From positions 1 to 61,787 of the IMG/VR virus record IMGVR_UViG_3300025101_000028: a stretch of DNA of 61,787 nt, one strand, 5' to 3'. The DNA is from a virus (taxonomy: Duplodnaviria; Caudoviricetes). The notes beneath the pieces are model-generated. The model made no database searches and was not told the DNA's origin. It was given only the letters and a program-made list of their open reading frames with translations. Shown here piece by piece: positions 1 to 15,533 of this stretch. Each line of letters starts with the position of its first letter. The first letter of the stretch is position 1. Both the position numbers and the translations under genes were made by a program.

Positions 1-10
1 TTGACCGACT

Positions 11-316
11 TTAGAATCGGTCGCTACCGTCGAGGTTTGTCACACCTGTTGGAAAACCAACGCACTCAAGTTGTGCATGTGTGAGAGGGAATTGAGAATA
101 GTACTTCTGTTTAAGTCTTTTGATCTCACGTTGTGTGTATGTAAGGTGACGTTGTGCATAGGCCACACGGCTCATCATTTCTTCATATGATAGTGTTCTC
201 GTGTCAACATAATTGATGTTATAGATAAGTTGCTCATACTGGGCAATAAGTTTCTGATAACGTACAACGTCGTTGCAAAGGGATTGAAGTTGTTGCTCAA
301 ATGTGATGTTGTCCAT
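11..316 (-). CDS. hypothetical coiled-coil protein (early)
   Basis: 101-aa ORF with AGGAGG RBS directly behind promoter unit 345-398. Confidence 0.75.
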   Translation of the reverse strand: MDNITFEQQLQSLCNDVVRYQKLIAQYEQLIYNINYVDTRTLSYEEMMSRVAYAQRHLTYTQREIKRLKQKYYSQFPLTHAQLECVGFPTGVTNLDGSDRF

Positions 317-344
317 AAAGACCTCCTGTTGAAGTGATGTTTAT

Positions 345-398
345 AATATAATCCGTTTTCGTTTACTTGTCAAACTCAAAACGGACAGAAATTGACCG
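345..398 (-). promoter_or_regulatory. early promoter + palindrome (class A)
   Basis: TTGACA(373-368)-17-TATATT(350-345); CGGACA-GAAAT-TGACCG at 382-398, 8 bp upstream of -35. Confidence 0.85.
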
Positions 399-402
399 TT
401 GG

Positions 403-549
403 TTATTCACCGTTTATGAGCAGACGAATCATTTCATAGTAGAGAATTCCCACTATGGCAAGGCCAAAAGATACAGAACAAAACGACATGATAAGGTGAA
501 AAGTTGGATAGTCTGTATTCTCAAAAAAAGCAAAAATTGAATCGAACAT
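403..549 (-). CDS. small membrane protein, 48 aa (not in ORF track)
   Basis: MFDSIFAFFENTDYPTFHLIMSFCSVSFGLAIVGILYYEMIRLLINGE; GGAGG RBS; own promoter unit. Confidence 0.7.
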   Translation of the reverse strand: MFDSIFAFFENTDYPTFHLIMSFCSVSFGLAIVGILYYEMIRLLINGE

Positions 550-576
550 ATTGTCCTCCGTTGAAGTGATGTTTAT

Positions 577-630
577 AATATAATCTATTTTCGTTTACTT
601 GTCAAATCGTTTTCGGACAGATTTTGACCG
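577..630 (-). promoter_or_regulatory. early promoter + palindrome (class A)
   Basis: TTGACA-17-TATATT; CGGACA-GATTT-TGACCG at 614-630. Confidence 0.85.
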
Positions 631-735
631 ATATTCTGTTTCTTCCCTGACAAACGGAAATATCAATATGCTATACAGAACAATAGCAAGCCATGATGTT
701 GAAAAGCCTAAAGCAATTATGAGAAGTAAGTCCAT
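595..735 (-). CDS. small membrane protein, 46 aa
   Basis: start MDLLLII after GGAGG; one hydrophobic helix; C-terminus reads through the next palindrome and -35. Confidence 0.7.
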   Translation of the reverse strand: MDLLLIIALGFSTSWLAIVLYSILIFPFVREETEYRSKSVRKRFDK

Positions 736-765
736 TTGAACCTCCAATTTGTTGGTGATGTTAGT

Positions 766-818
766 AATATAACCCATTCAAAACTTCTGTCGACCTCTAA
801 ACGGACAGAAAATGTCCG
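766..818 (-). promoter_or_regulatory. early promoter + palindrome (class A)
   Basis: TCGACA-16-TATATT; CGGACA-GAAAA-TGTCCG at 802-818. Confidence 0.8.
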
Positions 819-838
819 AATTTCCCATAGGGAAATGA

Positions 839-892
839 ACCCTATAGAAATGTCAAGTATTTTCAAACCCTATAGAAAAGTCAAGTATTTTT
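839..892. repeat. tandem 25-bp direct repeat ACCCTATAGAAAWGTCAAGTATTTT x2
   Basis: copies at 839-863 and 867-892; same unit recurs at 15291-15347. Confidence 0.85.
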
Positions 893-902
893 CCTCAAAA
901 TG

Positions 903-1010
903 AAAAAACCCCGAACCTCACAAAATCCCTTTATTTTATAAGTCTTTTAGACTTATGGGAACCTTCCGAAGTCGGGGTTTTAGATAGCCTAGAGTCGAAC
1001 TGCTCTAGGT
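903..1010 (-). terminator. long structured terminator / candidate ncRNA
   Basis: AAAACCCCGA...TCGGGGTTTT stem enclosing ATAAGTCT/AGACTTAT hairpin; T-tract follows on minus strand; extra CCTAGAG/CTCTAGG hairpin. Confidence 0.55.
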
Positions 1011-1022
1011 GAAACTAGCAAT

Positions 1023-1265
1023 TTATTTCCTCTGTGGTGGTTGGCATACACCATTTTGTATGAGTGCATGTGCGTTACGTCCGTACCAACCTTGCAACGT
1101 CCATGCATGCCCACTGTTGATCAAGTACTGCCAAGCCTGTACTTTTGCTGTGTATGAGTCCACACCGTCGGGGATTTCCACGAATTCCTCTATGATCCCA
1201 CATGCTGTGTAAAGGTCGGTTATGGCGAAAGGGAAAAGATTTTGTTGATTATTTTCGTTAGACAT
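1023..1265 (-). CDS. conserved-type phage hypothetical protein
   Basis: WQxLIxSGxAWxLQGWYGRxA motif typical of a small phage protein family. Confidence 0.75.
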   Translation of the reverse strand: MSNENNQQNLFPFAITDLYTACGIIEEFVEIPDGVDSYTAKVQAWQYLINSGHAWTLQGWYGRNAHALIQNGVCQPPQRK

Positions 1266-1447
1266 GGGCGATTCCTTTGTTGTGGTGCTAGTTATGTGAG
1301 TGATGTGTTAGGTACGTCTATGAGATTATCTGACAAACGTAATGGTTACTTAGATACATACTGTTTACAGGCTTGTATTGTACTGTGTACAAGGTTTTAA
1401 GATAGCCCATAGGGTAGTAGGGTAGGGGGGTAGGCTCTAGGGTGGTA

Positions 1448-1927
1448 TCAGGGTAGTATATCCTTTGGTAGAATGAAGAAATTTTTCGGGTTGTGGTCGG
1501 GGTAAACTATTCGGTGACATTCCCTGTGGAACATATCCTCCGACCATGCTTGTGACCAACGAGCCTCTTTAGGATATGGGTGATTCCCTATCTGAACAAA
1601 GTACAAGTTTGGATAATAAGTTTCAAGTGTTGAATTCTTCATATCTAAAAACCTGTTAGCCACGTTGGGATATTGAGTGTGATAGCCTGTAAGTATGTCG
1701 TCCTTGACATGGACAATAGGTGTGTAAACTACTCTATCTTCAGGATCAACCTTTATGCCTTGATTGTCTAACCAATTTTTAAAGTCACGTTGCCATACAC
1801 CCATTCTCTTATAGACAGTGTTGTCCTTCCACACATAGATAGGGTGGTCTGAGTTATAAGCCATTTGTTGAAAATCAACATGATTTGGGTTAATAGCCAT
1901 ATGATATAAGTTAGATGAAAATTCCAT
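1448..1927 (-). CDS. hypothetical protein
   Basis: 159-aa ORF, AGGAG RBS, own promoter unit. Confidence 0.75.
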   Translation of the reverse strand: MEFSSNLYHMAINPNHVDFQQMAYNSDHPIYVWKDNTVYKRMGVWQRDFKNWLDNQGIKVDPEDRVVYTPIVHVKDDILTGYHTQYPNVANRFLDMKNSTLETYYPNLYFVQIGNHPYPKEARWSQAWSEDMFHRECHRIVYPDHNPKNFFILPKDILP

Positions 1928-1956
1928 TGTTGTCTCCTGTGTTGTTGTATATAAAT

Positions 1957-2010
1957 ATTATAACCTGTTCTCAATCACTTGTCAAATTCTTATCGGACAA
2001 TTTTTGACCG
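1957..2010 (-). promoter_or_regulatory. early promoter + palindrome (class A)
   Basis: TTGACA-17-TATAAT; CGGACA-ATTTT-TGACCG at 1994-2010. Confidence 0.85.
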
Positions 2011-2013
2011 AAT

Positions 2014-2118
2014 TCACTTATTGTCCTCTCTGTCGTCACGACATTTGCATACCGCTTGCTTTGTTACCACTAGGACAAGGCATATTGCAAACATTATTGT
2101 TACTGTTTCCTCTATCAT
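2014..2118 (-). CDS. small membrane peptide, 34 aa
   Basis: MIEETVTIMFAICLVLVVTKQAVCKCRDDREDNK; TAATG coupling to the upstream gene. Confidence 0.5.
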   Translation of the reverse strand: MIEETVTIMFAICLVLVVTKQAVCKCRDDREDNK

Positions 2119-2315
2119 TATAATCTGTCCTCGTTCACCCATTCGTTTCCTTGCTTGACTTTTATTCCGACAAGTCTCTCGTATGTTCTCGCCTTGTAGC
2201 GAATATGTTGGAATAACTCATTCCTTGTGCCTGTAAACTCTATGTCTCTTTTCTCTCCAGCATAGCGACATATCTTTGTTGATGGTGTGTGTAGTGTGAA
2301 TAAGAATGTTGTCAT
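2118..2315 (-). CDS. hypothetical protein
   Basis: GGAGG RBS behind promoter unit. Confidence 0.7.
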   Translation of the reverse strand: MTTFLFTLHTPSTKICRYAGEKRDIEFTGTRNELFQHIRYKARTYERLVGIKVKQGNEWVNEDRL

Positions 2316-2342
2316 GATGACCTCCGTTTGAATGATGTTTAT

Positions 2343-2386
2343 AATATAACCGATTGATGAAATATTGCAAGGACAAATTATGTCCG
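2343..2386 (-). promoter_or_regulatory. early promoter + palindrome (class B, abutting -35)
   Basis: TTGCAA-16-TATATT; AGGACA-AATTA-TGTCCG at 2370-2386. Confidence 0.8.
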
Positions 2387-2590
2387 TTTTTGTTTTATGT
2401 CCTCTACAAGGATAAGATGATCAATGTTGCATAAAACTCTTTTCTTGTTGGCATGACGACCATTGAGAAACTTTACCCACAGTAAGTCATCTTGATTGCA
2501 TACCCTCCGAGCAATACCGACAACGACACCATAGTCTAACCTACCTCTATTCAAGTCCACTTCCCACGTTACTAAACTTCCTACTTGCAT
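2378..2590 (-). CDS. SH3/KOW-like small protein (array member)
   Basis: MQVGSLV...YGVVV...VKF pattern. Confidence 0.75.
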   Translation of the reverse strand: MQVGSLVTWEVDLNRGRLDYGVVVGIARRVCNQDDLLWVKFLNGRHANKKRVLCNIDHLILVEDIKQKRT

Positions 2591-2757
2591 TTTATCTCCT
2601 CTAAATGATGAAATGGTAGTAAGTAATTCCTACCGTTGATAAGGACATAGTATTGACCACTTCTGTTCTTTGGTTTTATAATAAGCCCGATAGAGCCGTA
2701 ACCAATAAGATAGTTATCGTATCTGTCTATGTATCTGAACAAATCACCTACTTGCAT
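2581..2757 (-). CDS. SH3/KOW-like small protein (array member)
   Basis: MQVGDLF start, GGAGG RBS, ends LEEIKCK. Confidence 0.75.
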   Translation of the reverse strand: MQVGDLFRYIDRYDNYLIGYGSIGLIIKPKNRSGQYYVLINGRNYLLPFHHLEEIKCK

Positions 2758-2942
2758 ATTGCCTCCAAATGTCCTGACCATGCCGATCCTTTCTGTCCAT
2801 TCGGGAGAAGAACCCAATGACTATTCGCATAGCGACGATCTTCTTCTATATAGACCACCAAAGCACCTTTGTAAAAGTTTGTATTATTGATGTTCAAGTC
2901 CATTCCTAACTTGTAAAGTTTTCCCTGTATCAGTGTCCTCAT
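2748..2942 (-). CDS. SH3/KOW-like small protein (array member)
   Basis: MRTLIQGKLY start, ends LEAICK. Confidence 0.7.
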   Translation of the reverse strand: MRTLIQGKLYKLGMDLNINNTNFYKGALVVYIEEDRRYANSHWVLLPNGQKGSAWSGHLEAICK

Positions 2943-2944
2943 AA

Positions 2945-3226
2945 TTATCTCCTGTCCATAACCCAAAATTGATGTTTCGTGGTGGTGTATTGTAGGTATC
3001 CCCACACACCTGTGTTTGGGCATTGTTCTAAACAGAACATTTCCACAAGTGCGTTCTCATATCCGTTGTAAGATTGTAGGTCTGTGACAACATAGAAACG
3101 ATATCCACAAGTGATAAGGTCGCCAATCTCTACGTCGTGAATGGACTTGTTACTTCTCGGTAACTTCGCTATTCTTAATCTCTCATCTATGAGGGCTTGT
3201 TGTTGTGGTGAAAATTGTTGTGTCAT
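2945..3226 (-). CDS. hypothetical protein with SH3-like domain
   Basis: VEIGDLI motif; AGGAGG RBS before MTQQF. Confidence 0.7.
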   Translation of the reverse strand: MTQQFSPQQQALIDERLRIAKLPRSNKSIHDVEIGDLITCGYRFYVVTDLQSYNGYENALVEMFCLEQCPNTGVWGYLQYTTTKHQFWVMDRR

Positions 3227-3257
3227 TGTTGACCTCCTGTGTTTCAATGATGTTTAT

Positions 3258-3310
3258 AATATAACTGATCCACAAAATAATGCAAATGCCAAACGGACAA
3301 TTTTTGACCG
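3258..3310 (-). promoter_or_regulatory. early promoter + palindrome (class A)
   Basis: TTGCAT/TATATT; CGGACA-ATTTT-TGACCG at 3294-3310. Confidence 0.8.
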
Positions 3311-3372
3311 AAACGATAAAGGCTCGTATTTCACGTTTTAAGAGCCTAAATCATTATCGTGGTGTCCTTACA

Positions 3373-3813
3373 CTAGATTAACTTGAAAAAGGCACTATCG
3401 CCCTCTAACGTGGTTGGAATAAGGATGTGCGTGATTACCCCACCATATATCAATGCGTCAATCATTTGGCATCTATAGGCACGTTGTTGATCCTCGACAG
3501 GTTTACCTAACTCGCCATAGGCAAGGTTTTTGAGCTTATTACTTCTCCACTGTGAGTTAAATCCCCACTGCATGACCTCTGTTGCAAAGCACTTGTTTCC
3601 ACGATTGTAGACTACTGCGTATTTTTTACCGTTGTATTCGATATGTTCTGCAAGGACAATTTGTTCGGGTTGTGATATTCGTTGCCAACGACCGTCTTTG
3701 TGCGACCATTTGACCTCTGTGGCGATAATCTTTGTACCATCAAAAATTACTTCTTTGTTGTACTTGTACGGTGTACGTGCCTTGAAATGGGTTGCTAATT
3801 TATCGTAACTCAT
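3373..3813 (-). CDS. hypothetical protein
   Basis: 146-aa ORF, GGAGG RBS. Confidence 0.75.
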   Translation of the reverse strand: MSYDKLATHFKARTPYKYNKEVIFDGTKIIATEVKWSHKDGRWQRISQPEQIVLAEHIEYNGKKYAVVYNRGNKCFATEVMQWGFNSQWRSNKLKNLAYGELGKPVEDQQRAYRCQMIDALIYGGVITHILIPTTLEGDSAFFKLI

Positions 3814-4117
3814 AAGATACCTCCTCTGTATCGTCTATATCGGGTTCGTTTGGTAGTATAACTATTTTCAAGTATCTCTGTGCTGACCTCTCAGACACGA
3901 ACACTTCACCTCTCACTATATCACAAGCACCGTCTTTGAGAGCCTTGTAAATTGAATAGTATTTTCTATCTTCATGTAGGTACTCTGTGACAAAGTACTT
4001 GCCACCGTAGAGTGTGGGTAGTACCCTTGTTTGATGTGCCTTCTGTCGGGCTTTGTCAAAGAATGAGTAACCATTTTCCCTTGACAAGATAATTATATCG
4101 TTGATTGTTTCAAACAT
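3800..4117 (-). CDS. phage hypothetical protein
   Basis: 105-aa ORF, AGGAGG RBS, FF...YFVTE...Y pattern. Confidence 0.75.
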   Translation of the reverse strand: MFETINDIIILSRENGYSFFDKARQKAHQTRVLPTLYGGKYFVTEYLHEDRKYYSIYKALKDGACDIVRGEVFVSERSAQRYLKIVILPNEPDIDDTEEVSYELR

Positions 4118-4254
4118 TATTCCTCCTGTGGTTGTTTTTTATGTTTGTCTTTTCTTGTGTATTTCGATTTATCTCTGTGAGAGCCAGCCTTTCGGTTCTG
4201 TTCGATATGCACTTGATGAATGATGTTTCGTTTCTTAGGGGTTTTTTTAGACAT
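4117..4254 (-). CDS. small basic protein with ArfA-like HxDKxKYxRKxKH tail (not in ORF track)
   Basis: MSKKTPKKRNIIHQVHIEQNRKAGSHRDKSKYTRKDKHKKQPQEE; TAATG coupling to next gene. Confidence 0.65.
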   Translation of the reverse strand: MSKKTPKKRNIIHQVHIEQNRKAGSHRDKSKYTRKDKHKKQPQEE

Positions 4255-4329
4255 TGTTGTGTCCTCTGAATAGAGGTATCCTCAACACTACACTGTGAGA
4301 GAGGACACCGATGAAAAAGAGCAAAGAGA

Positions 4330-5388
4330 TTATTGCCCTGCTGTCAAGATTTTCACTATGAAGTCTTGAACAGAACCTTGTTTGGTCTGTAGACCATGAA
4401 GTTTGGCCACGTTGTGAGTAGCCTCCTCGCCACTGCCCATAGCTTGCCACAGTGTCATAGCAATCTCGGAGGGGAGTGTTGTGAAGTACTCTGCGAGGTT
4501 TTGCAATTGCTTGTCTTTTAACTTCGTGTCAAACGACTTCTTAGCCTTGAATTTCTCGATAAGACTGTTATGGTCGTTAATCTTAAACTTCTTAGTCAAC
4601 TTAACATTACCCTTGTCAAGGATATCTTCGGGAGTGACGACCTTGCAATAGTTTTTAACATAGTCATTGAAAGCCATAGCACCCTCAAAGCCGATAAAAG
4701 AGTGTGACAAGTGATACAAGGTTGTGCCATGTTCGATCTTTCCAACTTGTTGGAGAGTCTGTGACAGACGTTCCCAAGACCTACGACTAGGATAAATCTT
4801 GTTAGGCTCGAATGTATCCTTGTGTTCCAAGTGATTGTGATTGTGGTTGATGAAGTCCCAAATCTGATCTGCGACTTTACCCTCTGCCCAAGCCAACCAA
4901 TCCTCAACAGTAGGCTCTACATCAAAGACAGTGTAACGGTCTAACTCGGCAGGGTCGAATTCGTTGACTTGATACTCTGCACCATGTTGCCCACCGTTGA
5001 CACAAGCGAAGATAAGTGTGTCGGGGTGTAGGCTATGACCAGCAATTTTGCGAGAGTCACACAATTCAAAGATACCTTGTCGGACTTCTAGTGTCGCTCT
5101 GTCTACCTCGTCAAGGAATAGGACAACAGGATTTTTACATGCATTGTCTAACCATTCAGGTGCAAGCCACTGAGTGACGTTGTTGTTTACTTTTGGTAGA
5201 CCAAGCAAGTCACCTTCGGTCATCTGTGAGGCACGACGTTCTACAACAGGTAAGCCACGTTCTTTTGCTATCTGATAGACAACGGTGGATTTACCGATAC
5301 CATGTCTACCACGAAGTAAAACGGGAAACTTGCTATCAAGTACGTGAGGAAGGATATTGTTAATGAGAGTTTTGAAATCAATAGTCAT
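4330..5388 (-). CDS. MoxR-like AAA+ ATPase
   Basis: Walker A GRHGIGKS, DLLGLP, Walker B LFLDEVDRA, DPAELDRY, PSRRSW. Confidence 0.9.
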   Translation of the reverse strand: MTIDFKTLINNILPHVLDSKFPVLLRGRHGIGKSTVVYQIAKERGLPVVERRASQMTEGDLLGLPKVNNNVTQWLAPEWLDNACKNPVVLFLDEVDRATLEVRQGIFELCDSRKIAGHSLHPDTLIFACVNGGQHGAEYQVNEFDPAELDRYTVFDVEPTVEDWLAWAEGKVADQIWDFINHNHNHLEHKDTFEPNKIYPSRRSWERLSQTLQQVGKIEHGTTLYHLSHSFIGFEGAMAFNDYVKNYCKVVTPEDILDKGNVKLTKKFKINDHNSLIEKFKAKKSFDTKLKDKQLQNLAEYFTTLPSEIAMTLWQAMGSGEEATHNVAKLHGLQTKQGSVQDFIVKILTAGQ

Positions 5389-5441
5389 GAAAGACCTCCG
5401 AATGATTGAATGAAAAGATTGTTTGAATGTTTAGTGTTTAT

Positions 5442-5486
5442 AATATAATTAGGTTGGAAGAAAAAGTCAAGGACAAAAAATGTCCG
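5442..5486 (-). promoter_or_regulatory. early promoter + palindrome (class B)
   Basis: TTGACT-17-TATATT; AGGACA-AAAAA-TGTCCG at 5470-5486. Confidence 0.85.
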
Positions 5487-5494
5487 ATTTAGTT

Positions 5495-5698
5495 TTATGT
5501 CGTCTTAAAGCCAATTGTTGGCTTATCCTCTGTTTCTTCACTTGTAGGCTTTGGCATGGGTAGGGGTAGACCACCTAACGCACCTAGCATAGCAAGGGGA
5601 TTGATTGGTGTTCCTGTCGGACTTGTTGTGGATATTAACTTTGCAATCTCAATGATAGCATTGTCAGACAGTGTGATTGTGATTTTGTTGTCGCTCAT
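5495..5698 (-). CDS. hypothetical protein ending in IGF motif
   Basis: GGAGG RBS; Pro-rich linker; C-terminal KPTIGFK. Confidence 0.7.
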   Translation of the reverse strand: MSDNKITITLSDNAIIEIAKLISTTSPTGTPINPLAMLGALGGLPLPMPKPTSEETEDKPTIGFKTT

Positions 5699-5725
5699 AG
5701 CAACCTCCGTTTGTTTGATATAAGT

Positions 5726-6055: not shown

Positions 6056-6124
6056 ACTGACCTCCGTTAAAAAAAACTTATTGCCCACCCATACCCGACT
6101 ACTGTGTAGTCTCAACCTTTTTTA

Positions 6125-8871: not shown

Positions 8872-8873
8872 AG

Positions 8874-9391: not shown

Positions 9392-10208
9392 AGTCACCTC
9401 CGTAGTTTTCAACAAGTTTTTTGCAGAGTCCCAAGAAGTCAGACATTTGTTCCTTTGACCACTTCTTTAGAGCATAGTTAATGTCCTCTGTGGGTGCTTG
9501 TTCAAACCATTCATCTGGAAATGTGTAGGATGATTGGGCAATGACCTCGATAGCCTCGACATTACCCCAATAGTAGGAATAAGAGAACAAGGCACTAGCC
9601 AAAGCATCTGACTTTGTTTTAATCAGTATCCTAGCATTGATTTTGTTATCGCCATATTCGGGCTTGTAACCAAGCAAAGGAATGAACACTTCTTGTCTCT
9701 TACTATCTTCACCAAGAGCGAACACATTAAGATTTTCGGGCAATTCTGCACCAACAGTACAAAGATGCTCTTTGGTAACGTATGAGCCTGCTTTGTAGTT
9801 ATAACCTCTATCGGTAACTTTAATAAGTGAAGCAGGTGTCAGACCATATTTAATAGCTATTTCAGACCATAAGTGTCTCCACACACGATTGGCTTTGATG
9901 ATAAATTTTTTATCTTTTACCATTTGTGGACAATCCCTACGGTTATGCCCTGTTTCACGACAGTAGCCACACTTTTTGGGCTTTTTAGCAACCTTTGTGC
10001 CTGTCTTTGAAATGCCTTTGCGTTTTTCGATATACTGCACTGCGTAATTGCCCTTGAAGTCACGTTCGTGAATAGGTTTATCTTTGACCTGTTCGTAAAG
10101 AGCGATCATGTCGGGACACTTTACAAGTGTGTGTCCTTGTGTACCACAGAACTTACATGTTGGTGCTGACCGTCCATAGTTTGATTGTTTTCTTGCATTT
10201 ATAGTCAT
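9378..10208 (-). CDS. double CCHC zinc-knuckle protein
   Basis: CKFCGTQGHTLVKC and CGYCRETGHNRRDC (CX2CX4HX4C twice). Confidence 0.8.
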   Translation of the reverse strand: MTINARKQSNYGRSAPTCKFCGTQGHTLVKCPDMIALYEQVKDKPIHERDFKGNYAVQYIEKRKGISKTGTKVAKKPKKCGYCRETGHNRRDCPQMVKDKKFIIKANRVWRHLWSEIAIKYGLTPASLIKVTDRGYNYKAGSYVTKEHLCTVGAELPENLNVFALGEDSKRQEVFIPLLGYKPEYGDNKINARILIKTKSDALASALFSYSYYWGNVEAIEVIAQSSYTFPDEWFEQAPTEDINYALKKWSKEQMSDFLGLCKKLVENYGGDYGIS

Positions 10209-10240
10209 AAAGACCTCCGTTTATTGTTGAATGTAATAGT

Positions 10241-10294
10241 AATATAATTGTTTCTTGTTTGTTTGTCAAATGCGAAACGGTCATTTTTTGTCCG
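10241..10294 (-). promoter_or_regulatory. early promoter + palindrome (class A)
   Basis: TTGACA-17-TATATT; CGGTCA-TTTTT-TGTCCG at 10278-10294. Confidence 0.85.
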
Positions 10295-10490
10295 TTTCTA
10301 TTTTTATTAGCATATGAGGTTGGGTTTGTATCCTGTTACCGTTATGTACGTTCTGTATTCTGATATAGCCTTTGAATGAGCCTGTTCTTTCAACACCTTT
10401 GCCCAATACAAGCCAAATCTCATAGCTGTGTGGAGTGTTAAATGCCCTATGTTGCTTTCTATACACCAAGTCACCTGTTTTTATTTGCAT
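10281..10490 (-). CDS. SH3/KOW-like small protein
   Basis: MQIKTGDLVY start. Confidence 0.75.
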   Translation of the reverse strand: MQIKTGDLVYRKQHRAFNTPHSYEIWLVLGKGVERTGSFKGYIRIQNVHNGNRIQTQPHMLIKIETDKK

Positions 10491-10687
10491 AACTCCTCCA
10501 ATCCGATAACGACACCATGACAATAGTGTCCAAAGTCATTACTTTTACCTGTTAATCTTCCCTCTTTGAGCCACTGTACTTTATAGGGAAAAGGGTTCTT
10601 TTCCCTCACTTCGGTAATGATGCCGATCCTGTCTGTTTCGTAGGAAATTGTTACCAAGTCACCTACACTGTGTTTTAGTTTGGACAT
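10481..10687 (-). CDS. SH3/KOW-like small protein
   Basis: SVGDLV...IGIIT...YKVQW...LEELCK. Confidence 0.75.
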   Translation of the reverse strand: MSKLKHSVGDLVTISYETDRIGIITEVREKNPFPYKVQWLKEGRLTGKSNDFGHYCHGVVIGLEELCK

Positions 10688-10714
10688 AACGTCCTCCGTT
10701 TGTTTGATAATTGT

Positions 10715-10758
10715 AATATAACTCATTCATCATATTTGTCGAGGACATTTTTTGTCCG
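10715..10758 (-). promoter_or_regulatory. early promoter + palindrome (class B)
   Basis: TCGACA-16-TATATT; AGGACA-TTTTT-TGTCCG at 10742-10758. Confidence 0.8.
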
Positions 10759-10935
10759 TTTTAGAAAGTCGGCTCTCATATTGGCAGCAACCATGTCGTT
10801 GGTTACAATGGTCACACAAGACTTCACACAAGTAAGGTCGTATTTATAATCCTCATTGAGAGGACACCACCAAATATCTGAAATTATCCACATAGTCTGT
10901 GTCACCAAATCCCAACACAAGTCACCTATATTCAT
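10723..10935 (-). CDS. SH3/KOW-like small protein
   Basis: MNIGDLC start, GGAGG RBS. Confidence 0.7.
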   Translation of the reverse strand: MNIGDLCWDLVTQTMWIISDIWWCPLNEDYKYDLTCVKSCVTIVTNDMVAANMRADFLKRTKNVLDKYDE

Positions 10936-11188
10936 AATTGTCCTCCAGTACACGTTTGAACATGTAGAAGTTTGTGTCTATTCGCCACCAACGATTATTC
11001 TCATAGAAATGATAAATAGCACTGTCGTAGTCACCCTCATCATCTCGAAATGTTTCGGTTGTCTCGTCACAATCGTTCCATGTGACCTCAATACTTATAA
11101 AACCATCCTCTTTACAATAGAAGTGTTCTTTGATTAGACCGATAAAAAGCCCATCAATTGTGTCTGTTTTTATTAGTGTGCCCACCAT
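10922..11188 (-). CDS. SH3/KOW-like protein
   Basis: MVGTLI...IGLI...IEVTW. Confidence 0.7.
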   Translation of the reverse strand: MVGTLIKTDTIDGLFIGLIKEHFYCKEDGFISIEVTWNDCDETTETFRDDEGDYDSAIYHFYENNRWWRIDTNFYMFKRVLEDNYEYR

Positions 11189-11200
11189 AGTAGTGTCCCC

Positions 11201-11539
11201 CTATTGGTCTGTCTTGCGTTTACTATCACCAGCATTATTGACAGTGACGGTCTTGAATTTGATATCGTTAAGTCCACCCTTACGTTGGTTGTTCCAACCA
11301 CGATTTGCCTCCCACTTCTTCTGATAAGTGTCTGCGTCACTCTCTGAATCGAAGGCTAATATAGAAATACAGGCTTGCTTACTCTCACCTGAGACACAAC
11401 CCCTGTACCTAACGTGTGTCTCTGTGCCTAATTCCTCGACACAATCGGGACACTCATTGATGTACCCCCCCACTCGTTGCTTTTCTGCACTCTGACAATC
11501 GAATTCGTCCTCACAATGTTTGCATGTTCTAGTCATCAT
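11201..11539 (-). CDS. zinc-ribbon hypothetical protein
   Basis: CKHC...CPDC. Confidence 0.75.
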   Translation of the reverse strand: MMTRTCKHCEDEFDCQSAEKQRVGGYINECPDCVEELGTETHVRYRGCVSGESKQACISILAFDSESDADTYQKKWEANRGWNNQRKGGLNDIKFKTVTVNNAGDSKRKTDQ

Positions 11540-11566
11540 TACCTCCTGTGTTTGAATGATGTTGAT

Positions 11567-11620
11567 AATATAATCTGTTTAATTTTATTTGTCAAATCCA
11601 AAACGGTCAGAATTTGACCA
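11567..11620 (-). promoter_or_regulatory. early promoter + palindrome (class A)
   Basis: TTGACA-17-TATATT; CGGTCA-GAATT-TGACCA at 11604-11620. Confidence 0.85.
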
Positions 11621-11849
11621 CTTTAATATGACTTCTCCATAGGTCGCCATAGTCGTATTCACATTGGTCATTATCAGACCAAAGAACAGCAAAGGAAGAA
11701 TAATTTTTTTCGTTAGTAGTGTCCTGTCGGAATTCGTGTGCAACAACCACACCCATACAGCCGTAGTCCTGTGATTCCTCTCTGTTCCACATGACCAAAG
11801 AGCCGACTCTGACTAACTGTTCTTCATCAATTAAATCACCTACTTGCAT
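11607..11849 (-). CDS. SH3/KOW-like protein with duplicated N-terminal motif
   Basis: MQVGDLIDEEQLVRVGSLVMW. Confidence 0.75.
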   Translation of the reverse strand: MQVGDLIDEEQLVRVGSLVMWNREESQDYGCMGVVVAHEFRQDTTNEKNYSSFAVLWSDNDQCEYDYGDLWRSHIKVVKF

Positions 11850-11998
11850 ACTGCCTCCAATTCATGATCATCATACCAATTGCTTATACAATTATCTATC
11901 CGTATCACATGAAAGTTTATACCGTAACCATCACCATGCTCGTCTATTACAATACCGAAGAAGCCTTTATAATGCTTTACCAAAGAACCTACTCGCAT
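11840..11998 (-). CDS. SH3/KOW-like small protein
   Basis: MRVGSLVKHY...LEAVCK. Confidence 0.75.
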   Translation of the reverse strand: MRVGSLVKHYKGFFGIVIDEHGDGYGINFHVIRIDNCISNWYDDHELEAVCK

Positions 11999-12201
11999 AT
12001 CACCACCTGTTCTGTGATTTCCCAATAACCTCTGTCTATCTCGAACAGGTAGTCCTCTAATTCCTCTAAGGAGGGGTTGTCGGTGCAATACTCTGCGAAC
12101 CACTCTCTGATAATCCTCTCGGCTATTGCATGGGTTTTACATAGATAAACTATGTTATCGTCACCACTGTATCTGATTTGTAATGTTATTATTGTGTCCA
12201 T
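11989..12201 (-). CDS. acidic hypothetical protein
   Basis: GGAGG RBS; ends VVICE at the shared junction. Confidence 0.7.
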   Translation of the reverse strand: MDTIITLQIRYSGDDNIVYLCKTHAIAERIIREWFAEYCTDNPSLEELEDYLFEIDRGYWEITEQVVICE

Positions 12202-12228
12202 AAGAACCTCCGTTTGTTTGATGTTTAT

Positions 12229-12282
12229 AATATAACTGTTTAGTTTAATTCTGTCAAATGCAAAACGGTCATTTTTTGACCA
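12229..12282 (-). promoter_or_regulatory. early promoter + palindrome (class A)
   Basis: TTGACA-17-TATATT; CGGTCA-TTTTT-TGACCA at 12266-12282. Confidence 0.85.
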
Positions 12283-12439
12283 CTTCTAAATTGATTTCGT
12301 TCTCTTGATATTCTAACCCACAAAGCCACTTGACAGACCATAGTTTTTTGAAAACAGGATTTTGTTTTACAATCAAGCCAATGCTGTCGTTATCAACGGC
12401 TGTTTCCTTATATTTTACTAAATCACCTACTTTGAACAT
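12269..12439 (-). CDS. SH3/KOW-like small protein
   Basis: MFKVGDLVKY...IGLIV...VKW. Confidence 0.75.
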   Translation of the reverse strand: MFKVGDLVKYKETAVDNDSIGLIVKQNPVFKKLWSVKWLCGLEYQENEINLEVVKK

Positions 12440-12582
12440 AATAACCTCAATTCTGTTATCCACATTTTACCCTCGCCAGTACCGTCTATGTAGTGTACTA
12501 TCCAACAATCGACATTTATCTGTCTTGTGATAACACCTACATCATCACAATAATCTATCACTAAATCACCTACTTTGAACAT
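12427..12582 (-). CDS. SH3/KOW-like small protein, 51 aa (not in ORF track)
   Basis: MFKVGDLVIDYCDDVGVIT...IVHY...LRLLCSK. Confidence 0.75.
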   Translation of the reverse strand: MFKVGDLVIDYCDDVGVITRQINVDCWIVHYIDGTGEGKMWITELRLLCSK

Positions 12583-12749
12583 GTTACTTCCTTCAGAATG
12601 TTAACTGTCTCTGTTCTTGTACCTAGATCAGGCCAATGTACATCTACCCTAGTGTGTCCATTGTAGTCCAGCATTTCATGTACCTTAACGACTACCCCAA
12701 TCCCACAGTGTCGTGGTGATTGGTGTCTTACTAATGTTCCTACTTGCAT
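12570..12749 (-). CDS. SH3/KOW-like small protein, 59 aa (not in ORF track)
   Basis: MQVGTLVRHQSPRHCGIGVVV...VDVHW...KEVTCSK. Confidence 0.75.
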   Translation of the reverse strand: MQVGTLVRHQSPRHCGIGVVVKVHEMLDYNGHTRVDVHWPDLGTRTETVNILKEVTCSK

Positions 12750-12775
12750 GTTGTCTCCATTTGTTTGATGTAGAT

Positions 12776-12829
12776 AATATAACTGTTCCGAGTAACCCTG
12801 TCAAGCCCAAAACGGTCAATTTTTGACCA
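12776..12829 (-). promoter_or_regulatory. early promoter + palindrome (class A)
   Basis: TTGACA-17-TATATT; CGGTCA-ATTTT-TGACCA at 12813-12829. Confidence 0.85.
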
Positions 12830-13028
12830 CTTCCAATACTTCTTCGGCAAATACGGAATAGACTTGACCTTGCATGTCTCCGTGTATAATTCTAATCCTA
12901 CGAAAGCCCACAGGTCTTTCTCCCCCATAGCCACAATCAGCATACACCACTAGTCCTACAGTATCCTCGTATCCCTTATAAATGCTTTTCCAAACCTTTT
13001 TTATCCTTACTAAATCGCCTACTTGCAC
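12816..13028 (-). CDS. SH3/KOW-like small protein
   Basis: GTG start, QVGDLVRI. Confidence 0.75.
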   Translation of the reverse strand: MQVGDLVRIKKVWKSIYKGYEDTVGLVVYADCGYGGERPVGFRRIRIIHGDMQGQVYSVFAEEVLEVVKN

Positions 13029-13189
13029 AATACCTCCAGTTTTCTAATATCAAATTCAATTCGTTCCCCAGTGTCTGCTATGCTGATTACCACGTTGTAA
13101 GGGTTCCATTTGTCCACAATGATAGCCAGTTTTCCAACTTTACTTTGACTAAATGACTGTCGTATCCTTACCAAATCGCCTACTTGCAT
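13019..13189 (-). CDS. SH3/KOW-like small protein
   Basis: MQVGDLVRIRQ...GKLAIIV...LEVLCK. Confidence 0.8.
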   Translation of the reverse strand: MQVGDLVRIRQSFSQSKVGKLAIIVDKWNPYNVVISIADTGERIEFDIRKLEVLCK

Positions 13190-13314
13190 AATACCTCCAA
13201 ATGACCTCTGTATACCCACCCAAAGCAACACTTTACCAAGTTTGGTTCTATCTCTATGATAATACCGACTTTGGTATTGGGATATGTTGTCTTTACTAAC
13301 GAACCTACTCGCAT
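13180..13314 (-). CDS. SH3/KOW-like small protein, 44 aa (not in ORF track)
   Basis: MRVGSLVKTTYPNTKVGIII...LEVLCK. Confidence 0.7.
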   Translation of the reverse strand: MRVGSLVKTTYPNTKVGIIIEIEPNLVKCCFGWVYRGHLEVLCK

Positions 13315-13478
13315 ACTTCCTCCAAATAATAATCGCTATACCACCCTGTTGATTGGTCTTTGAGCCACAGGATATGCACCCTACCACCTGCTCTGTGTGT
13401 TATTATGCCTAATTTGTACTCGCCACCATTTAGACGTTCTCTTATAGATTGCCACCTTACTAACGAACCTATTCGCAT
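13305..13478 (-). CDS. SH3/KOW-like small protein
   Basis: MRIGSLVRW...LGIIT...VHILW...LEEVCE. Confidence 0.75.
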   Translation of the reverse strand: MRIGSLVRWQSIRERLNGGEYKLGIITHRAGGRVHILWLKDQSTGWYSDYYLEEVCE

Positions 13479-13663
13479 GTTACCTCCACTAATTGTTTTG
13501 TATGAAAATGCCTTGTTATAGACATGTTTGTTATGGGAGAGATTTGCCACACACCCCCACTCATGTAGTAGGTGATGATGTAGATTTCGGGCATGACCTC
13601 GCTGTTGTATCTGTTAATTGCTCTCACCAGTTTACCTACTTTTAAATTCTTTTTGTTTCTCAT
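13469..13663 (-). CDS. SH3/KOW-like small protein
   Basis: LKVGKLVR...LVEVTCE. Confidence 0.75.
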   Translation of the reverse strand: MRNKKNLKVGKLVRAINRYNSEVMPEIYIITYYMSGGVWQISPITNMSITRHFHTKQLVEVTCE

Positions 13664-13821
13664 AATTTCACAACGTCATAAGTACACTTTGCACATATCT
13701 CACCTGTTTTAATCCAGTAGATAGTGTATGAGTTATAACGCAGATTGTAACGCATTACCATACCTATGTCCTTTCTTTCTAAGTATCCATGTAAATGGAC
13801 TAAATCTCCTGTTCTGAGCAT
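13660..13821 (-). CDS. SH3/KOW-like small protein, 53 aa (not in ORF track)
   Basis: MLRTGDLVHL...IGMVM...YTIYW; GGAGG RBS; ATGA overlap. Confidence 0.75.
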   Translation of the reverse strand: MLRTGDLVHLHGYLERKDIGMVMRYNLRYNSYTIYWIKTGEICAKCTYDVVKL

Positions 13822-14000
13822 TTTTCCTCCTTTGTGAGTAAATCATCTTCAAATTCAACTGTTTCGTGTGTTCCACCATTATCGAAAAACCACCGAATAC
13901 GGTAGTAGGGATAGCCTACATTGTCCTCAAAGTCAACCTTGACTATTATTCCCATAGTCGCTATCTCCCACTTTGCCCATACTAAATCTCCTACTTGCAT
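13800..14000 (-). CDS. SH3/KOW-like small protein
   Basis: MQVGDLVW...MGIIV...YRIRW. Confidence 0.8.
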   Translation of the reverse strand: MQVGDLVWAKWEIATMGIIVKVDFEDNVGYPYYRIRWFFDNGGTHETVEFEDDLLTKEEKCSEQEI

Positions 14001-14164
14001 ACTTCCTCCACATGTTCGTTATGATAATGGTGTGTTCTCATAGTCTTTACGTTGTAACCTGTAAAGATCCACGATCCATTTGTTTTTAGACAGATCACGA
14101 TATTGCCCATTTGCCAATCGGTGTGCCTATTGTGTGTTATTATATATAAGTGTCCTACTTGCAT
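13991..14164 (-). CDS. SH3/KOW-like small protein
   Basis: MQVGHLY...VEEVCK. Confidence 0.75.
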   Translation of the reverse strand: MQVGHLYIITHNRHTDWQMGNIVICLKTNGSWIFTGYNVKTMRTHHYHNEHVEEVCK

Positions 14165-14349
14165 AACACCTCCAAATATTCTTCTGTCCACCATGTCGGT
14201 TTATCATCATTAATAAACTGCACTAAAAATGTTAGTTTGCCATAGCCATGACCTTTTTGATCCCAAATCTTTGATCCGACAATAAGACCTAAAGGACGTC
14301 GCTTTGGTAGATAAAAATCTTTTGTTCTTACTAGATCACCTACTTGCAT
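14155..14349 (-). CDS. SH3/KOW-like small protein
   Basis: MQVGDLVR...LGLIV...LVQF...LEVLCK. Confidence 0.8.
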   Translation of the reverse strand: MQVGDLVRTKDFYLPKRRPLGLIVGSKIWDQKGHGYGKLTFLVQFINDDKPTWWTEEYLEVLCK

Positions 14350-14519
14350 AGTACCTCCAAACGACTTCGTGTCCACCAGCTTTTGTGTCCACTAGGGAAT
14401 AGAACCTCATACTTCCAATCGCCATTGTGGTGGACACCTGTGTCTATTATAAGACCAATAGCACCACTTTGACTAGGATGAAATGGGTTGTTTATTTGTA
14501 CTAAATAACCAATTTTCAT
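14340..14519 (-). CDS. SH3/KOW-like small protein, 59 aa (not in ORF track)
   Basis: MKIGYLVQI...IGLII...YEVLF...LEVLCK. Confidence 0.75.
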   Translation of the reverse strand: MKIGYLVQINNPFHPSQSGAIGLIIDTGVHHNGDWKYEVLFPSGHKSWWTRSRLEVLCK

Positions 14520-14549
14520 AGCACCTCCAAAAATAAATGATAATTATAC

Positions 14550-14599
14550 TTGACAATATAATATAAATGCGTTATAATGTCAAGGACAGAAATTGTCCG
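14550..14599. promoter_or_regulatory. overlapping divergent sigma70 promoters + palindrome (class B)
   Basis: minus: TTGACA(14583-14578)-17-TATATT(14560-14555); plus: TTGACA(14550-14555)-17-TATAAT(14573-14578); AGGACA-GAAAT-TGTCCG at 14583-14599. Confidence 0.8.
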
Positions 14600-14792
14600 T
14601 TTTCTTAAACCAACGAGTTTCACAATGAACTTTCCTATTACTTCCCACTTGTCTCAAGTAGACACCGTATTTACCGTAGCCACCAATGTCTACGACCAAA
14701 TAAAGTGTGCCGAGTATCGGATGAATTCTCAAACTATTTTTGAGATTACCGACCAACAAGTCTCCGACTTTAACATCTTTTCGTTCAAGCAT
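14580..14792 (-). CDS. SH3/KOW-like small protein
   Basis: VKVGDLL...LYLVV. Confidence 0.75.
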   Translation of the reverse strand: MLERKDVKVGDLLVGNLKNSLRIHPILGTLYLVVDIGGYGKYGVYLRQVGSNRKVHCETRWFKKTDNFCP

Positions 14793-14810
14793 ATCGCTCT
14801 CCTTTTATAT

Positions 14811-14854
14811 AATATAACACATGGGAAAAATAAATCAAGGACAAAAAATGTCCG
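14811..14854 (-). promoter_or_regulatory. early promoter + palindrome (class B)
   Basis: TTGATT-16-TATATT; AGGACA-AAAAA-TGTCCG at 14838-14854. Confidence 0.8.
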
Positions 14855-14857
14855 TTT

Positions 14858-15028
14858 TTATATTTTTACAAACCAACGTGGTGGCATACGGGAAACCCTT
14901 CCTGTTACTATGTTCTTTACTCTTATAGTCACACCTGATAACTCGCCTATAACAATATAAACGTGCTTGTCTCTCTTATGATTTGTAAAAGTTAATAAGT
15001 CACCGACTTGATAGTTACACATTTTCAT
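14858..15028 (-). CDS. SH3/KOW-like small protein, 56 aa (not in ORF track)
   Basis: MKMCNYQVGDLLTF...VYIVI...; GAGG RBS. Confidence 0.75.
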   Translation of the reverse strand: MKMCNYQVGDLLTFTNHKRDKHVYIVIGELSGVTIRVKNIVTGRVSRMPPRWFVKI

Positions 15029-15055
15029 TATTCACCTCGTTTGTTGTTCCTTTAT

Positions 15056-15099
15056 ATTATAACATGTTCGAGTAATCAGACAAGGACAAAAAATGACCG
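15056..15099 (-). promoter_or_regulatory. early promoter + palindrome (class B)
   Basis: TTGTCT-16-TATAAT; AGGACA-AAAAA-TGACCG at 15083-15099. Confidence 0.8.
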
Positions 15100-15102
15100 T
15101 TT

Positions 15103-15480
15103 TCAAACAATTACCAAATATTCCCTGTCGATTCCTAATTGACCAACGTCATGGTATCGTGTGTCACACCATTGGACAATCCAAAAGCCCTTGTGATTTT
15201 TGCTCTCAGCGACAACAAGTCCAAGACCAAGTTGTGGAACTGTTCTGTGTTGGACTAATTGGCCAATGGACATTTTTTGTCCGTTTTCGTACCCTATAGA
15301 AATGTCAAGTATTTTTTTCTCGAACCCTATAGAATTGTCAAGTTTTTGACATGTCAAGGGATTTTTGCTAATTTTATTTGTTTTCCACTTTGTAAACTTC
15401 CAAGCTGGGGACTTTGGTTGTACTGTGTTTAGTCCAGCTCTTTTTAAATACTCTAGTATGCTATCTATTTCTTCTGTCAT
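15103..15480 (-). CDS. ORF ending in an SH3-like domain (internal ATG at 15273), reading through the boundary repeats
   Basis: GGAGG RBS before MTEEI; C-terminal MSIGQLVQH...LGLVV...IVQW. Confidence 0.6.
   Translation of the reverse strand: MTEEIDSILEYLKRAGLNTVQPKSPAWKFTKWKTNKISKNPLTCQKLDNSIGFEKKILDISIGYENGQKMSIGQLVQHRTVPQLGLGLVVAESKNHKGFWIVQWCDTRYHDVGQLGIDREYLVIV
15267..15283. promoter_or_regulatory. last palindrome copy (no adjacent promoter)
   Basis: TGGACA-TTTTT-TGTCCG; no full copy seen beyond this point. Confidence 0.75.
15291..15357. repeat. tandem ACCCTATAGAAWTGTCAAGT repeats + TTGACATGTCAA palindrome
   Basis: copies at 15291-15315 and 15324-15347 match 839-892. Confidence 0.85.
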
Positions 15481-15530: not shown

Positions 15531-15533
15531 GTA

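Follow-up and report, generated by a model that had tools for sequence, protein, structure and literature searches.

A sequence-conserved palindrome phased to host-type promoters marks a small-gene array in an uncultured phage clade and is a candidate operator

Regulatory cassette arrays and multi-copy operators are already known, and the palindrome array described here is a variant of these. The nearest described architecture appears to be the promoter-early stem-loop (PeSL) of T4-type phages. It is a repeated cassette with a strong early promoter and a stem-loop, found in ORFan-rich hyperplastic regions (Arbiol et al. 2010, PMC2839356; Comeau et al. 2014, PMC4122927). As described in the accessible text of both papers, these stem-loops terminate transcription, take five positions relative to the promoter, and recombine into mini-circles. 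According to the accessible part of PMC3931495, the late promoters of P2, 186, and P4 present the element TGT-N12-ACA and are activated by the zinc-finger proteins Ogr/Delta/B. The corresponding part of PMC9283540 presents the stoperators of cluster A mycobacteriophages as asymmetric, bound by a monomer, and spread genome-wide. Here, we analyze the 61,787-bp IMG/VR virus record IMGVR_UViG_3300025101_000028 (CheckV completeness 34%). We call this whole stretch of DNA the window. It contains an array of the palindrome CGGWCA-N5-TGWCCG (W is A or T), which lies upstream of promoters of small genes. We confirm the observation and find the array throughout a phage clade. We propose with moderate confidence that the palindrome would be a DNA-level operator of a dimeric DNA-binding protein acting with RNA polymerase. 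This estimate counts the activating and the repressing variants together.

All the long reading frames of the window are on the minus strand. The strict 17-mer has seven exact matches in the window versus 0.00 expected (100 shuffles). With one mismatch or less there are 19 matches, and their starts are identical to the 19 reported in the original prediction. Searching with two mismatches adds three matches (20996, 28832, and 31960), which is the chance level (about 2 expected). The 15-mer core, GGWCA-N5-TGWCC, is exact in the 19 copies, all within 383-15282, where chance would give 0. The remaining 46.5 kb of the window has no such core, and the reversed-pattern control gave 0. The window also opens with TTGACCG. 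This is the tail of an additional copy, predicted as well, that is cut by the contig end. Because of this truncated copy, the array boundary at that side is set only by the assembly.

On the transcribed strand, a copy reads (AAAA)C-GGWCA-5 A/T-TGWCC. After it come a -35 hexamer, 16-17 nt, TATATT or TATAAT, a leader, GGAGG, and the ATG. A σ70-type -35/-10 pair comes after 18 of the 19 copies, as had been claimed; the gap between palindrome and -35 is 0 in six of them and 8-9 nt in the other 12. Copy 15267 has none. A Shine-Dalgarno sequence and an ATG are present within 110 nt of 17 copies. The leader ATAAACATCA had been called usual, and this is too strong a word: it is exact in six copies and similar in nine. 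Pairs of cassettes in the window have a mean identity of 62%, compared with 39% for shuffled sequences.

Many upstream reading frames end in or near the palindrome, in agreement with the original prediction. The stop codon is inside the 15-mer in six of the 19 copies (four times the TGA of TGACC and twice a TAA in the spacer). In four others, it lies 16-32 nt beyond the first palindrome base. It is at most 12 nt upstream in five, and 66 nt upstream in one. For three copies, we did not find an upstream reading frame. Copy 15267 does contain the ATG (15273) that was assigned to it. A relative, G001, conserves the small gene that begins with this codon.

The features of the array, in window coordinates, are the following.

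1-7, minus strand: palindrome tail TTGACCG, after the stop of gene 11-316, cut by the contig end (from the sequence).
345-398, minus strand: cassette with palindrome 382-398, 9-nt gap, TTGACA-17-TATATT, leading to gene 11-316.
577-630, minus strand: cassette with palindrome 614-630, 9-nt gap, TTGACA-17-TATATT, leading to gene 403-549.
766-818, minus strand: cassette with palindrome 802-818, 9-nt gap, TCGACA-16-TATATT, leading to gene 595-735.
1957-2010, minus strand: cassette with palindrome 1994-2010, 9-nt gap, TTGACA-17-TATAAT, leading to gene 1448-1927.
2343-2386, minus strand: cassette with palindrome 2370-2386, gap 0 (it abuts the -35), TTGCAA-16-TATATT, leading to gene 2118-2315.
3258-3310, minus strand: cassette with palindrome 3294-3310, gap of 8-9 nt, TTTGCA-17-TATATT, leading to gene 2945-3226.
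5442-5486, minus strand: cassette with palindrome 5470-5486, gap 0, TTGACT-17-TATATT, leading to the AAA+ (MoxR-like) gene 4330-5388.
5726-5779, minus strand: cassette with palindrome 5763-5779, 9-nt gap, TTGACA-17-TATATT, leading to gene 5495-5698.
7392-7445, minus strand: cassette with palindrome 7429-7445, 9-nt gap, TTGACA-17-TATATT, leading to the DUF2201 metallopeptidase/VWA gene 6125-7360.
8050-8104, minus strand: cassette with palindrome 8088-8104, gap of 8-9 nt, weak -35 (TTGCAC), TATATT, and a long leader before gene 7778-7999.
10241-10294, minus strand: cassette with palindrome 10278-10294, 9-nt gap, TTGACA-17-TATATT, leading to the zinc-knuckle gene 9378-10208.
10715-10758, minus strand: cassette with palindrome 10742-10758, gap 0, TCGACA-16-TATATT, leading to gene 10481-10687.
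11567-11620, minus strand: cassette with palindrome 11604-11620, 9-nt gap, TTGACA-17-TATATT, leading to the conserved zinc-ribbon gene 11204-11539.
12229-12282, minus strand: cassette with palindrome 12266-12282, 9-nt gap, TTGACA-17-TATATT, leading to gene 11989-12201.
12776-12829, minus strand: cassette with palindrome 12813-12829, 9-nt gap, TTGACA-17-TATATT, leading to gene 12570-12749.
14555-14599, minus strand: cassette with palindrome 14583-14599, gap 0, TTGACA-17-TATATT, leading to a run of small SH3-like paralogue genes from 14340-14519.
14811-14854, minus strand: cassette with palindrome 14838-14854, gap 0, TTGATT-16-TATATT, leading to gene 14580-14792.
15056-15099, minus strand: cassette with palindrome 15083-15099, gap 0, TTGTCT-16-TATAAT, leading to gene 14858-15028.
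15267-15283, minus strand: palindrome copy without promoter, the first in transcription order; its right arm holds ATG 15273, and the gene is conserved in G001 at 9489.
15502-15530, minus strand: last promoter before the array, of the other class (TTGACA-17-TATATT, TG extension, no palindrome); it marks the class boundary.

We found the relatives with two pattern scans of IMG/VR. Six contigs were duplicates, and without them, 28 non-redundant records with 267 sites remained. Three of them (G005-G007) are complete phage records of 184-192 kb, judged 100% complete. The palindrome is clustered in one block of 11-21 kb per long record, with 13-29 copies per genome. In G001, the 22 sites are all at 9.5-27.1 kb of 114 kb. 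G007 has its 13 sites at 78.7-100.2 kb of 192 kb, and the 25 sites of G005 lie within a 20-kb stretch. The reversed-pattern controls gave 0-2 matches per record. In G006, 15 of 17 sites form one cluster spanning the contig ends. Its other two sites (42635 and 151279) are intragenic and have no promoter, so they do not point to an autoregulated regulator gene.

We also searched the palindrome plus -35 pattern in 185,579 species genomes, bacterial and archaeal. It appears in 22 stretches from unrelated taxa. Twenty-one of these contain one 15-mer, and a single one (L206) contains two. As these matches are scattered, at chance level, and form no array, the array is specific to this phage clade. 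The same scan gave no hint of the host. The style of the promoters and Shine-Dalgarno sequences suggests a host with a polymerase of the σ70/σA type.

The window encodes a DnaE-type polymerase, a class II ribonucleotide reductase, DnaB, and a split family-A polymerase. Its DnaE is less than 31% identical to any phage record compared, which means that there is no close cultured phage among them. A megablast of window 1-15300 against 50,697 phage records gave no match. A literature search, largely without subscription journals, found no description of the motif or the clade. At Rfam gathering scores, the window presents 0 families, and it has no tRNAs.

The sequence of the arms is strictly conserved. 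The count of invariant arms is partly circular, considering that the sites were defined by the pattern (267 of 267 are invariant by definition). A non-circular test is given by synteny. For 17 of the 19 window copies, G001 has an exact-pattern copy at the syntenic place, while the surrounding DNA is only about 78-82% identical. Cassette 12776-12829 has no counterpart at the syntenic place in G001; it is present in L128. Across 28 syntenic site pairs, none of the 224 arm bases differs. Differences are present in 9 of 56 W positions, 27 of 140 spacer positions, and 19-39% of the flanking positions.

At W, the variation in one arm is independent of that in the other. In the 28 records, the combinations are A/T in 149 sites, T/A in 19, A/A in 52, and T/T in 47; thus 99 sites (37%) are non-complementary. 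This table matches the estimate for independence (about 148, 18, 54, and 48, in the same order). The covariation score of 95 distinct rows is 0.045 versus 0.038 ± 0.009 after shuffling, and 94 of 500 shuffles were as high. Likewise, eight syntenic pairs changed at W: seven changes are one-sided, one goes from mismatch to mismatch, and none is compensatory. The sequence is conserved and the pairing is not, which is the opposite of an RNA or DNA hairpin under selection. Such a hairpin should keep its pairing while the sequence drifts, and for this reason it is not favored.

These data bear on one alternative directly. The palindrome might be an RNA hairpin, transcribed from the upstream unit, that insulates the units as a weak terminator, an attenuator, or a 3' stabilizer. 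It does lie right after the upstream stop codon, and 71 of 110 folded sites form a stem of 5-6 bp with a mean minimum free energy (MFE) of -6.5 kcal/mol. The copies with a gap of 9 are often preceded by AAAA and then followed by GTTTT. Of the 19 window copies, a simple scan also flags six as terminator-like, and three of these are in the transcribed sense. However, the other 39 sites have an internal U-U or A-A mismatch at W, with a mean 17-mer MFE of -2.3, and the median over the 110 sites is -6 kcal/mol. The stem has 5-6 bp, 3-4 of them G-C pairs, and five or more T in the next 8 nt are present at 18 sites. No site in the 110 combines an MFE of -7 or less with five or more T in the next 8 nt, as a terminator-grade hairpin would. 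In the majority class, with gap 0, the tail is TTTACA or TTGACA and not a run of T. Covariation and compensatory changes are both absent, and for a hairpin neither the invariance of the stem sequence nor the phasing to the -35 would be necessary. Besides, this phage is able to encode proper terminator-like elements, as seen at about 905-985, where a much stronger structure (-34.8 kcal/mol) precedes T6. We consider the hairpin very unlikely.

That stronger structure is an observation of its own. It is predicted on the minus strand at about 895-990, with -34.8 kcal/mol over 95 nt, and ends with CCCCGA...TCGGGG and then T6. It lies in the only sizeable non-coding stretch of the array and has no Rfam match. 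It could be a strong terminator or a small RNA.

The geometry of the gaps is the strongest clue. The arrays contain 213 promoter-like sites. An exact palindrome accompanies 178 of them, none has a copy with one mismatch, two have a copy with two mismatches, and 33 have none. Most of these 33 are weak or intragenic. So, the palindrome copies are all-or-none. Among the 178 sites, the gap from palindrome to -35 is 0 in 117, 7-10 in 45 (exactly 9 in 34), and 19-20 in 16. Gaps of 1-6 and 11-18 are present in none. The steps are close to one helical turn, which places the site on one face of the DNA. The nine-nt linkers have 20 different sequences among 25. The quality of the -35 changes with the register. 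A perfect TTGACA is present in 12 of 152 sites at gap 0, in 35 of 58 at a gap of about 9, and in 25 of 26 at a gap of about 20.

The window has two classes of promoters. Outside the array, at 15530-58953, there are 17 promoter-like sites (exact TTGACA and at least 11 of 12 matches). None has a palindrome. The original prediction counted 16 of them, also without palindrome. Fourteen of the 17 present a TG-extended -10 and an A-rich upstream tract; conversely, the TG extension is present in 2 of 18 array promoters. In the array promoters, the palindrome occupies the place of the A-tract of the other class.

From the strict conservation of the sequence, the independence of the arms, the phased spacing, and the distinct promoter class, we infer that a protein would bind, what kind of protein it may be, and in which sense it may regulate. 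An operator is preferred because neither a terminator nor a patch of homology for recombination needs such phasing. The half-sites GGWCA and TGWCC are inverted, have 5 bp each, and flank an A/T-rich spacer, with their centers 10 bp apart. Inverted 5-bp half-sites with centers at this distance are typical of a symmetric dimer that contacts two successive major grooves. A sequence-specific protein would sit on them as such a dimer. The bound protein would act with RNA polymerase from one face of the helix, with the site centered at about -43, -52, or -63. These centers come from the gaps of 0, 9, and 20 nt by arithmetic, with the -35 hexamer placed at -35 to -30. In this way, the palindrome would label one class of host-σ-type promoters that drives a variable block of small genes, 11-21 kb long, in an uncultured phage clade of about 185 kb.

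The original prediction proposed a master operator for host-takeover genes. Indirect evidence favors the operator part, with conserved independent arms, no terminator hairpin, phased registers, and a -35 that depends on the register. This evidence does not extend to the words "master" and "host takeover". Only the host-type promoters and the small ORFan genes suggest that the array region is early.

The sign of the regulation divides the operator into two variants. We lean slightly to activation or recruitment over repression or shut-off, because of the upstream and phased position of the sites, and because a palindrome directly adjacent to the -35 goes with a weaker hexamer. The serious rival of activation is a shut-off repressor with a stoperator-like roadblock. 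In that case, a phage protein made after infection would bind all the copies, silence the promoters, and block read-through. The conservation and the arm independence speak for it as much as for any operator. The copies with gap 0 touch the -35 and could occlude the hexamer. The copies without promoter (15267, G001 9489, and a few intragenic ones) suit a roadblock. In mycobacteriophages, PMC9283540 describes repressor sites that occur in many copies and stop elongation. Nevertheless, copies located 9 and 20 nt upstream of the -35 would not occlude polymerase, and recruitment accounts better for both the phasing and the weakness of the -35 next to an abutting palindrome. The site here is symmetric, unlike the asymmetric, monomer-bound stoperators of that source, and the searches for HTH_3, RHH_1, and HTH_17 found no repressor-like protein. 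Taken alone, shut-off with roadblock seems rather unlikely to us, and it is counted inside the estimate for an operator.

Several points weigh against an operator, or against a strict activator. In six-frame Pfam searches, HTH_3, RHH_1, and HTH_17 had no match over threshold, including in the complete G005-G007. Sigma70_r4 and Sigma70_r4_2 had no match in the five partial records G000-G004, in which they were searched. Pfam and PHROGs scans of about 60 window plus 9 relatives' proteins returned enzymes and no regulator. The search for a binder took in few DNA-binding families, so this is weak negative evidence. In addition, many copies are related by duplication, and their counts are not independent events; the spacing could be partly inherited from a few ancestral cassettes. 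It is doubtful that the promoters strictly need an activator, as they are already near consensus. Finally, 63% of the sites are still able to form a hairpin of 5-6 bp with about -6.5 kcal/mol, and these pairing-capable sites may have a weak structural role in RNA or DNA.

For the putative binder, we picked three small conserved proteins from 106 ORFs (open reading frames) shared with the three complete genomes. They are speculative candidates. The first is the zinc-ribbon protein (C-X2-C...C-X2-C) at 11204-11539, inside the array. It has no PHROG and no Pfam family at an E-value of 1 or less, and therefore it is not a member of Ogr_Delta. In the ESM Atlas, it falls only in unnamed viral clusters. 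The second is a protein of 107 amino acids at 25964-26284. The AlphaFold models of these two proteins are too poor for use (pLDDT, the predicted local distance difference test, of 59 for the zinc-ribbon protein and 53 for the other). The third is a basic protein of 117 amino acids in G001, at 39299-39652, with weak HTH_28/HTH_1 matches. The operators of CtsR, CggR, HutC/GntR-type, and other host regulators presumably have letters in common with the half-site, and we take none of them to be alike in arrangement.

A wider version of the proposal is that one putative protein runs a regulon of 13-29 promoters throughout the clade, acting at three helical registers and recruiting the host polymerase. 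We hold this version only tentatively, as doubtful. Its protein might possibly belong to a new DNA-binding fold, because the common helix-turn-helix (HTH) and ribbon-helix-helix (RHH) families searched are absent. If it were true, newly gained or duplicated small genes would enter the regulon immediately through a portable "address label plus promoter". It would also explain the plasticity of the block, as a protein-addressed counterpart of the T4 PeSLs.

A conserved basic ORF of 233-239 amino acids deserves separate mention (G001 61977-62678, which is L189:7977-8678, with homologues in G005-G008). It has a weak Sigma70_r2 match in five of six records. It is probably the phage's own σ factor, to judge from this match, and would imply a further promoter class for later genes. 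It is not a candidate for the dyad site, so we discarded it as the palindrome binder.

The shuffling of small units between relatives is real. Units bounded by cassettes are permuted between the window/G001 and G003, and between L060 and G003. The protein-family maps of the window/G001 and G003 show differing contexts for the zinc-knuckle gene and the families F13, F23, F24, F19, and F40. The order of the units also differs among G004, L007, and L012. One G001 cassette is a visible mosaic, with its junctions in the promoter spacer and not in the palindrome center.

These rearrangements bring in a second alternative, a PeSL-type module. Here, the palindrome would be the stem-loop or attenuator of a promoter-terminator cassette, and its main role in evolution would be to offer about 100 bp of repeated homology, across which general recombination of the phage swaps, deletes, and inserts small genes. 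The architecture is the one given in the accessible text of PMC2839356, with a strong σ70-type promoter, a palindrome, nearby upstream stops, and a variable ORFan-rich region. The comparison of L060 with G003, whose homology blocks are 85-94% identical, also speaks for it. A cassette is present at the four broken adjacencies (4/4), versus between the genes of one of seven kept adjacencies (Fisher p = 0.015). The cassette L060 3727-3803 is common to two homology blocks that map 1.6 kb apart in G003. Compared with random bases, block ends fall at cassettes in 10 of 20 cases for L060-G003 (18% coverage, p = 0.0012) and in 8 of 29 for the window and G001 (15%, p = 0.056). For four of the 16 syntenic cassettes, a non-orthologous cassette is more similar than the positional orthologue, and the phage encodes a RecA/UvsX-like protein and a gp32-like single-stranded DNA-binding protein (SSB).

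However, compared with gene junctions, the block ends are not enriched at cassettes in any of five pairs (binomial p = 0.88, 0.13, 0.59, 0.43, and 0.32). Between the window and G003, the breaks are not associated with the cassettes of the window (p = 0.39). The other 12 of the 16 syntenic cassettes look vertically inherited. The near-identical contig pairs L134/G003, L131/L145, L124/L126, L141/L012, and L146/L060 are collinear and present no event. The stem-loop part fails on the pairing data given above (37% unpaired at W, median MFE of -6, and 0 of 110 terminator-grade), and exchange driven by homology explains neither the invariant arms nor the phased spacing. As a whole, we regard the PeSL-type module as improbable. 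By the same results, the recombination joint of the original prediction is only partly supported. The permuted, cassette-bounded units and the junctions or mosaics inside some cassettes support it. Conversely, the block ends (p 0.13-0.88 against gene junctions) and the near-identical pairs without event do not.

Within the operator proposal, the conserved cassette of about 90 bp would have a by-product. It would provide short patches of homology for the phage's own recombination proteins. The homology of the cassettes and the RecA-like and gp32-like proteins plausibly contribute to the shuffling. Probably, this homology takes part in the reshuffling of units and the palindrome itself is not a recombination site.

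The third alternative makes the palindrome the core of a site-specific recombination system that captures and reorders cassettes, like an integron. In integrons, the folded structure of attC is conserved over its sequence, the reaction needs the IntI tyrosine recombinase, and the cassettes lack promoters of their own. An inverted repeat is indeed present at nearly every unit boundary, and the units are permuted between relatives. However, Phage_integrase (PF00589) and Resolvase (PF00239) had no match at an E-value of 0.1 or less in nine records, including the three that are 100% complete. These searches covered 5 + 6 records, nine of them different, with positive controls that were recovered in 13-14 of 14 genomes. 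The copies do not share one 5-nt spacer, and differing spacers would block strand exchange between most pairs of sites. The mosaic junctions are outside the palindrome center, and unlike attC, the sequence is kept and the pairing is not. The integron analogy of the original prediction is thus largely refuted, and we give this mechanism hardly any probability.

Other observations concern the array block and its edges. The G+C content is higher in the block (0.365-0.418 per 2-kb bin in window 1-16000, and 0.39-0.42 in the first 14 kb) than in most of the rest (0.33-0.40). The 20-mer ACTTGACAWTTCTATAGGGT has only four occurrences in the window (0.03 expected). They form two tandem pairs on the minus strand, at 839-886 and 15291-15343. 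In the sense of transcription, the pairs are directly upstream of palindromes 802 and 15267, and they bracket nearly the whole array. The CTATAGGG core of ACTTGACAWTTCTATAGGGT presumably resembles T7-type promoters. The exact 10-mer core of ACTTGACAWTTCTATAGGGT was not found in the relatives that were compared for it. The array edges of G006 and G007 have other direct repeats, which contain TTGTCAA.

The array is rich in one family of small proteins. They have 44-95 amino acids and the pattern M-x-V-G-D-L-V ... G-I-I ... W ... L-E-V-L-C-K. The window contains at least 22 paralogues at 2378-16116, and the family is also present at 26688-26879. The stop and start codons of these SH3-like paralogue genes often overlap. 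The SH3/Tudor-like Pfam hints are weak (DUF1918 in 2 of 22), and there is no solved relative. Similar small proteins fill the arrays of all the relatives. The array also contains the MoxR-like AAA+ ATPase (4330-5388) and the DUF2201 metallopeptidase/VWA protein (6125-7360), with a separate palindrome promoter for each. This pairing is also kept in G001 and G003.

In the rest of the window, we observed genes for a Hc1 histone H1-like protein (48639-48824), the RecA/UvsX-like recombinase (53269-54387), the gp32-like SSB (54653-55405), a ClpP protease (24532-25227), and a GroEL chaperonin (19461-21032). Several proteins of unrelated length share the N-terminus MK(L/I)TKQ(K/Q)L(E/R)Q(L/I)I.EE. An N-terminus of this type is present at 36482-37060, 35929-36480, 47854-48567, 45870-46580, and 42536-43870, and none of these proteins has a Pfam family. 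Two adjacent genes of the group, of 192 and 183 amino acids, are clear paralogues.

The palindrome is a clean, testable handle on gene regulation in a widespread uncultured phage lineage, represented by at least 28 non-redundant IMG/VR contigs, three of them complete. Its invariant 15-mer (13-29 copies per genome) would make an ideal bait to find the regulator. From the three phased registers, the response of the promoters to insertions of 5 bp and 10 bp can be predicted. The regulated block, with more than 20 paralogues of the small SH3-like protein and many ORFans, offers candidates for host-interaction functions. The arrays of "promoter plus palindrome" described in T4-type phages are terminator-promoter modules, and a sequence-specific operator would be an alternative core for such arrays. 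For that reason, similar arrays elsewhere should not be read as hairpins by default.

Compared with known systems, the array resembles an integron in its imperfect inverted repeat at each cassette boundary and in its one-directional series of small genes. It differs in that the sequence is conserved, the units have their own promoters, and no tyrosine or serine recombinase was found in nine records.

The array also resembles the stoperators. In both systems, one protein site is present in tens of copies across transcription units, often at gene boundaries, and one protein would serve many units. However, the stoperators are not tied to promoters. Here, a symmetric site is found in only about 10% of the genome and keeps its phase with the -35.

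The analogy with the T4 PeSL stands for the architecture of promoter, palindrome, and small variable genes; it does not stand for the stem-loop or terminator component. On the descriptions available in the two PeSL papers, both systems repeat a composite cassette (about 100 bp) that combines a strong host-σ promoter, a palindrome, upstream stops in or near it, and a Shine-Dalgarno sequence plus ATG at the 3' end. Both are concentrated in a variable region of small ORFans, where the presence and order of units differ between relatives, and both phages have their own recombination proteins. Nevertheless, the PeSL stems are stable and often pair a run of G with a run of C, whereas the sequence here is invariant, 37% of the sites are unpaired, and there is no T tail. 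The PeSL takes five positions relative to the promoter, and the palindrome takes only three phased ones, all upstream of the -35. The crossovers and mini-circles of the PeSL were shown by experiment, whereas here the breakpoints are not enriched over gene junctions.

The dyad of the P2-type late promoters is located near position -55. P2 has four such promoters versus 13-29 here, and the half-sites and their spacing differ. Functionally, the P2 system is similar. Upstream of the -35, a short dyad identifies a single temporal class among the phage promoters that the host polymerase uses, and here, too, a small phage protein would read the dyad.

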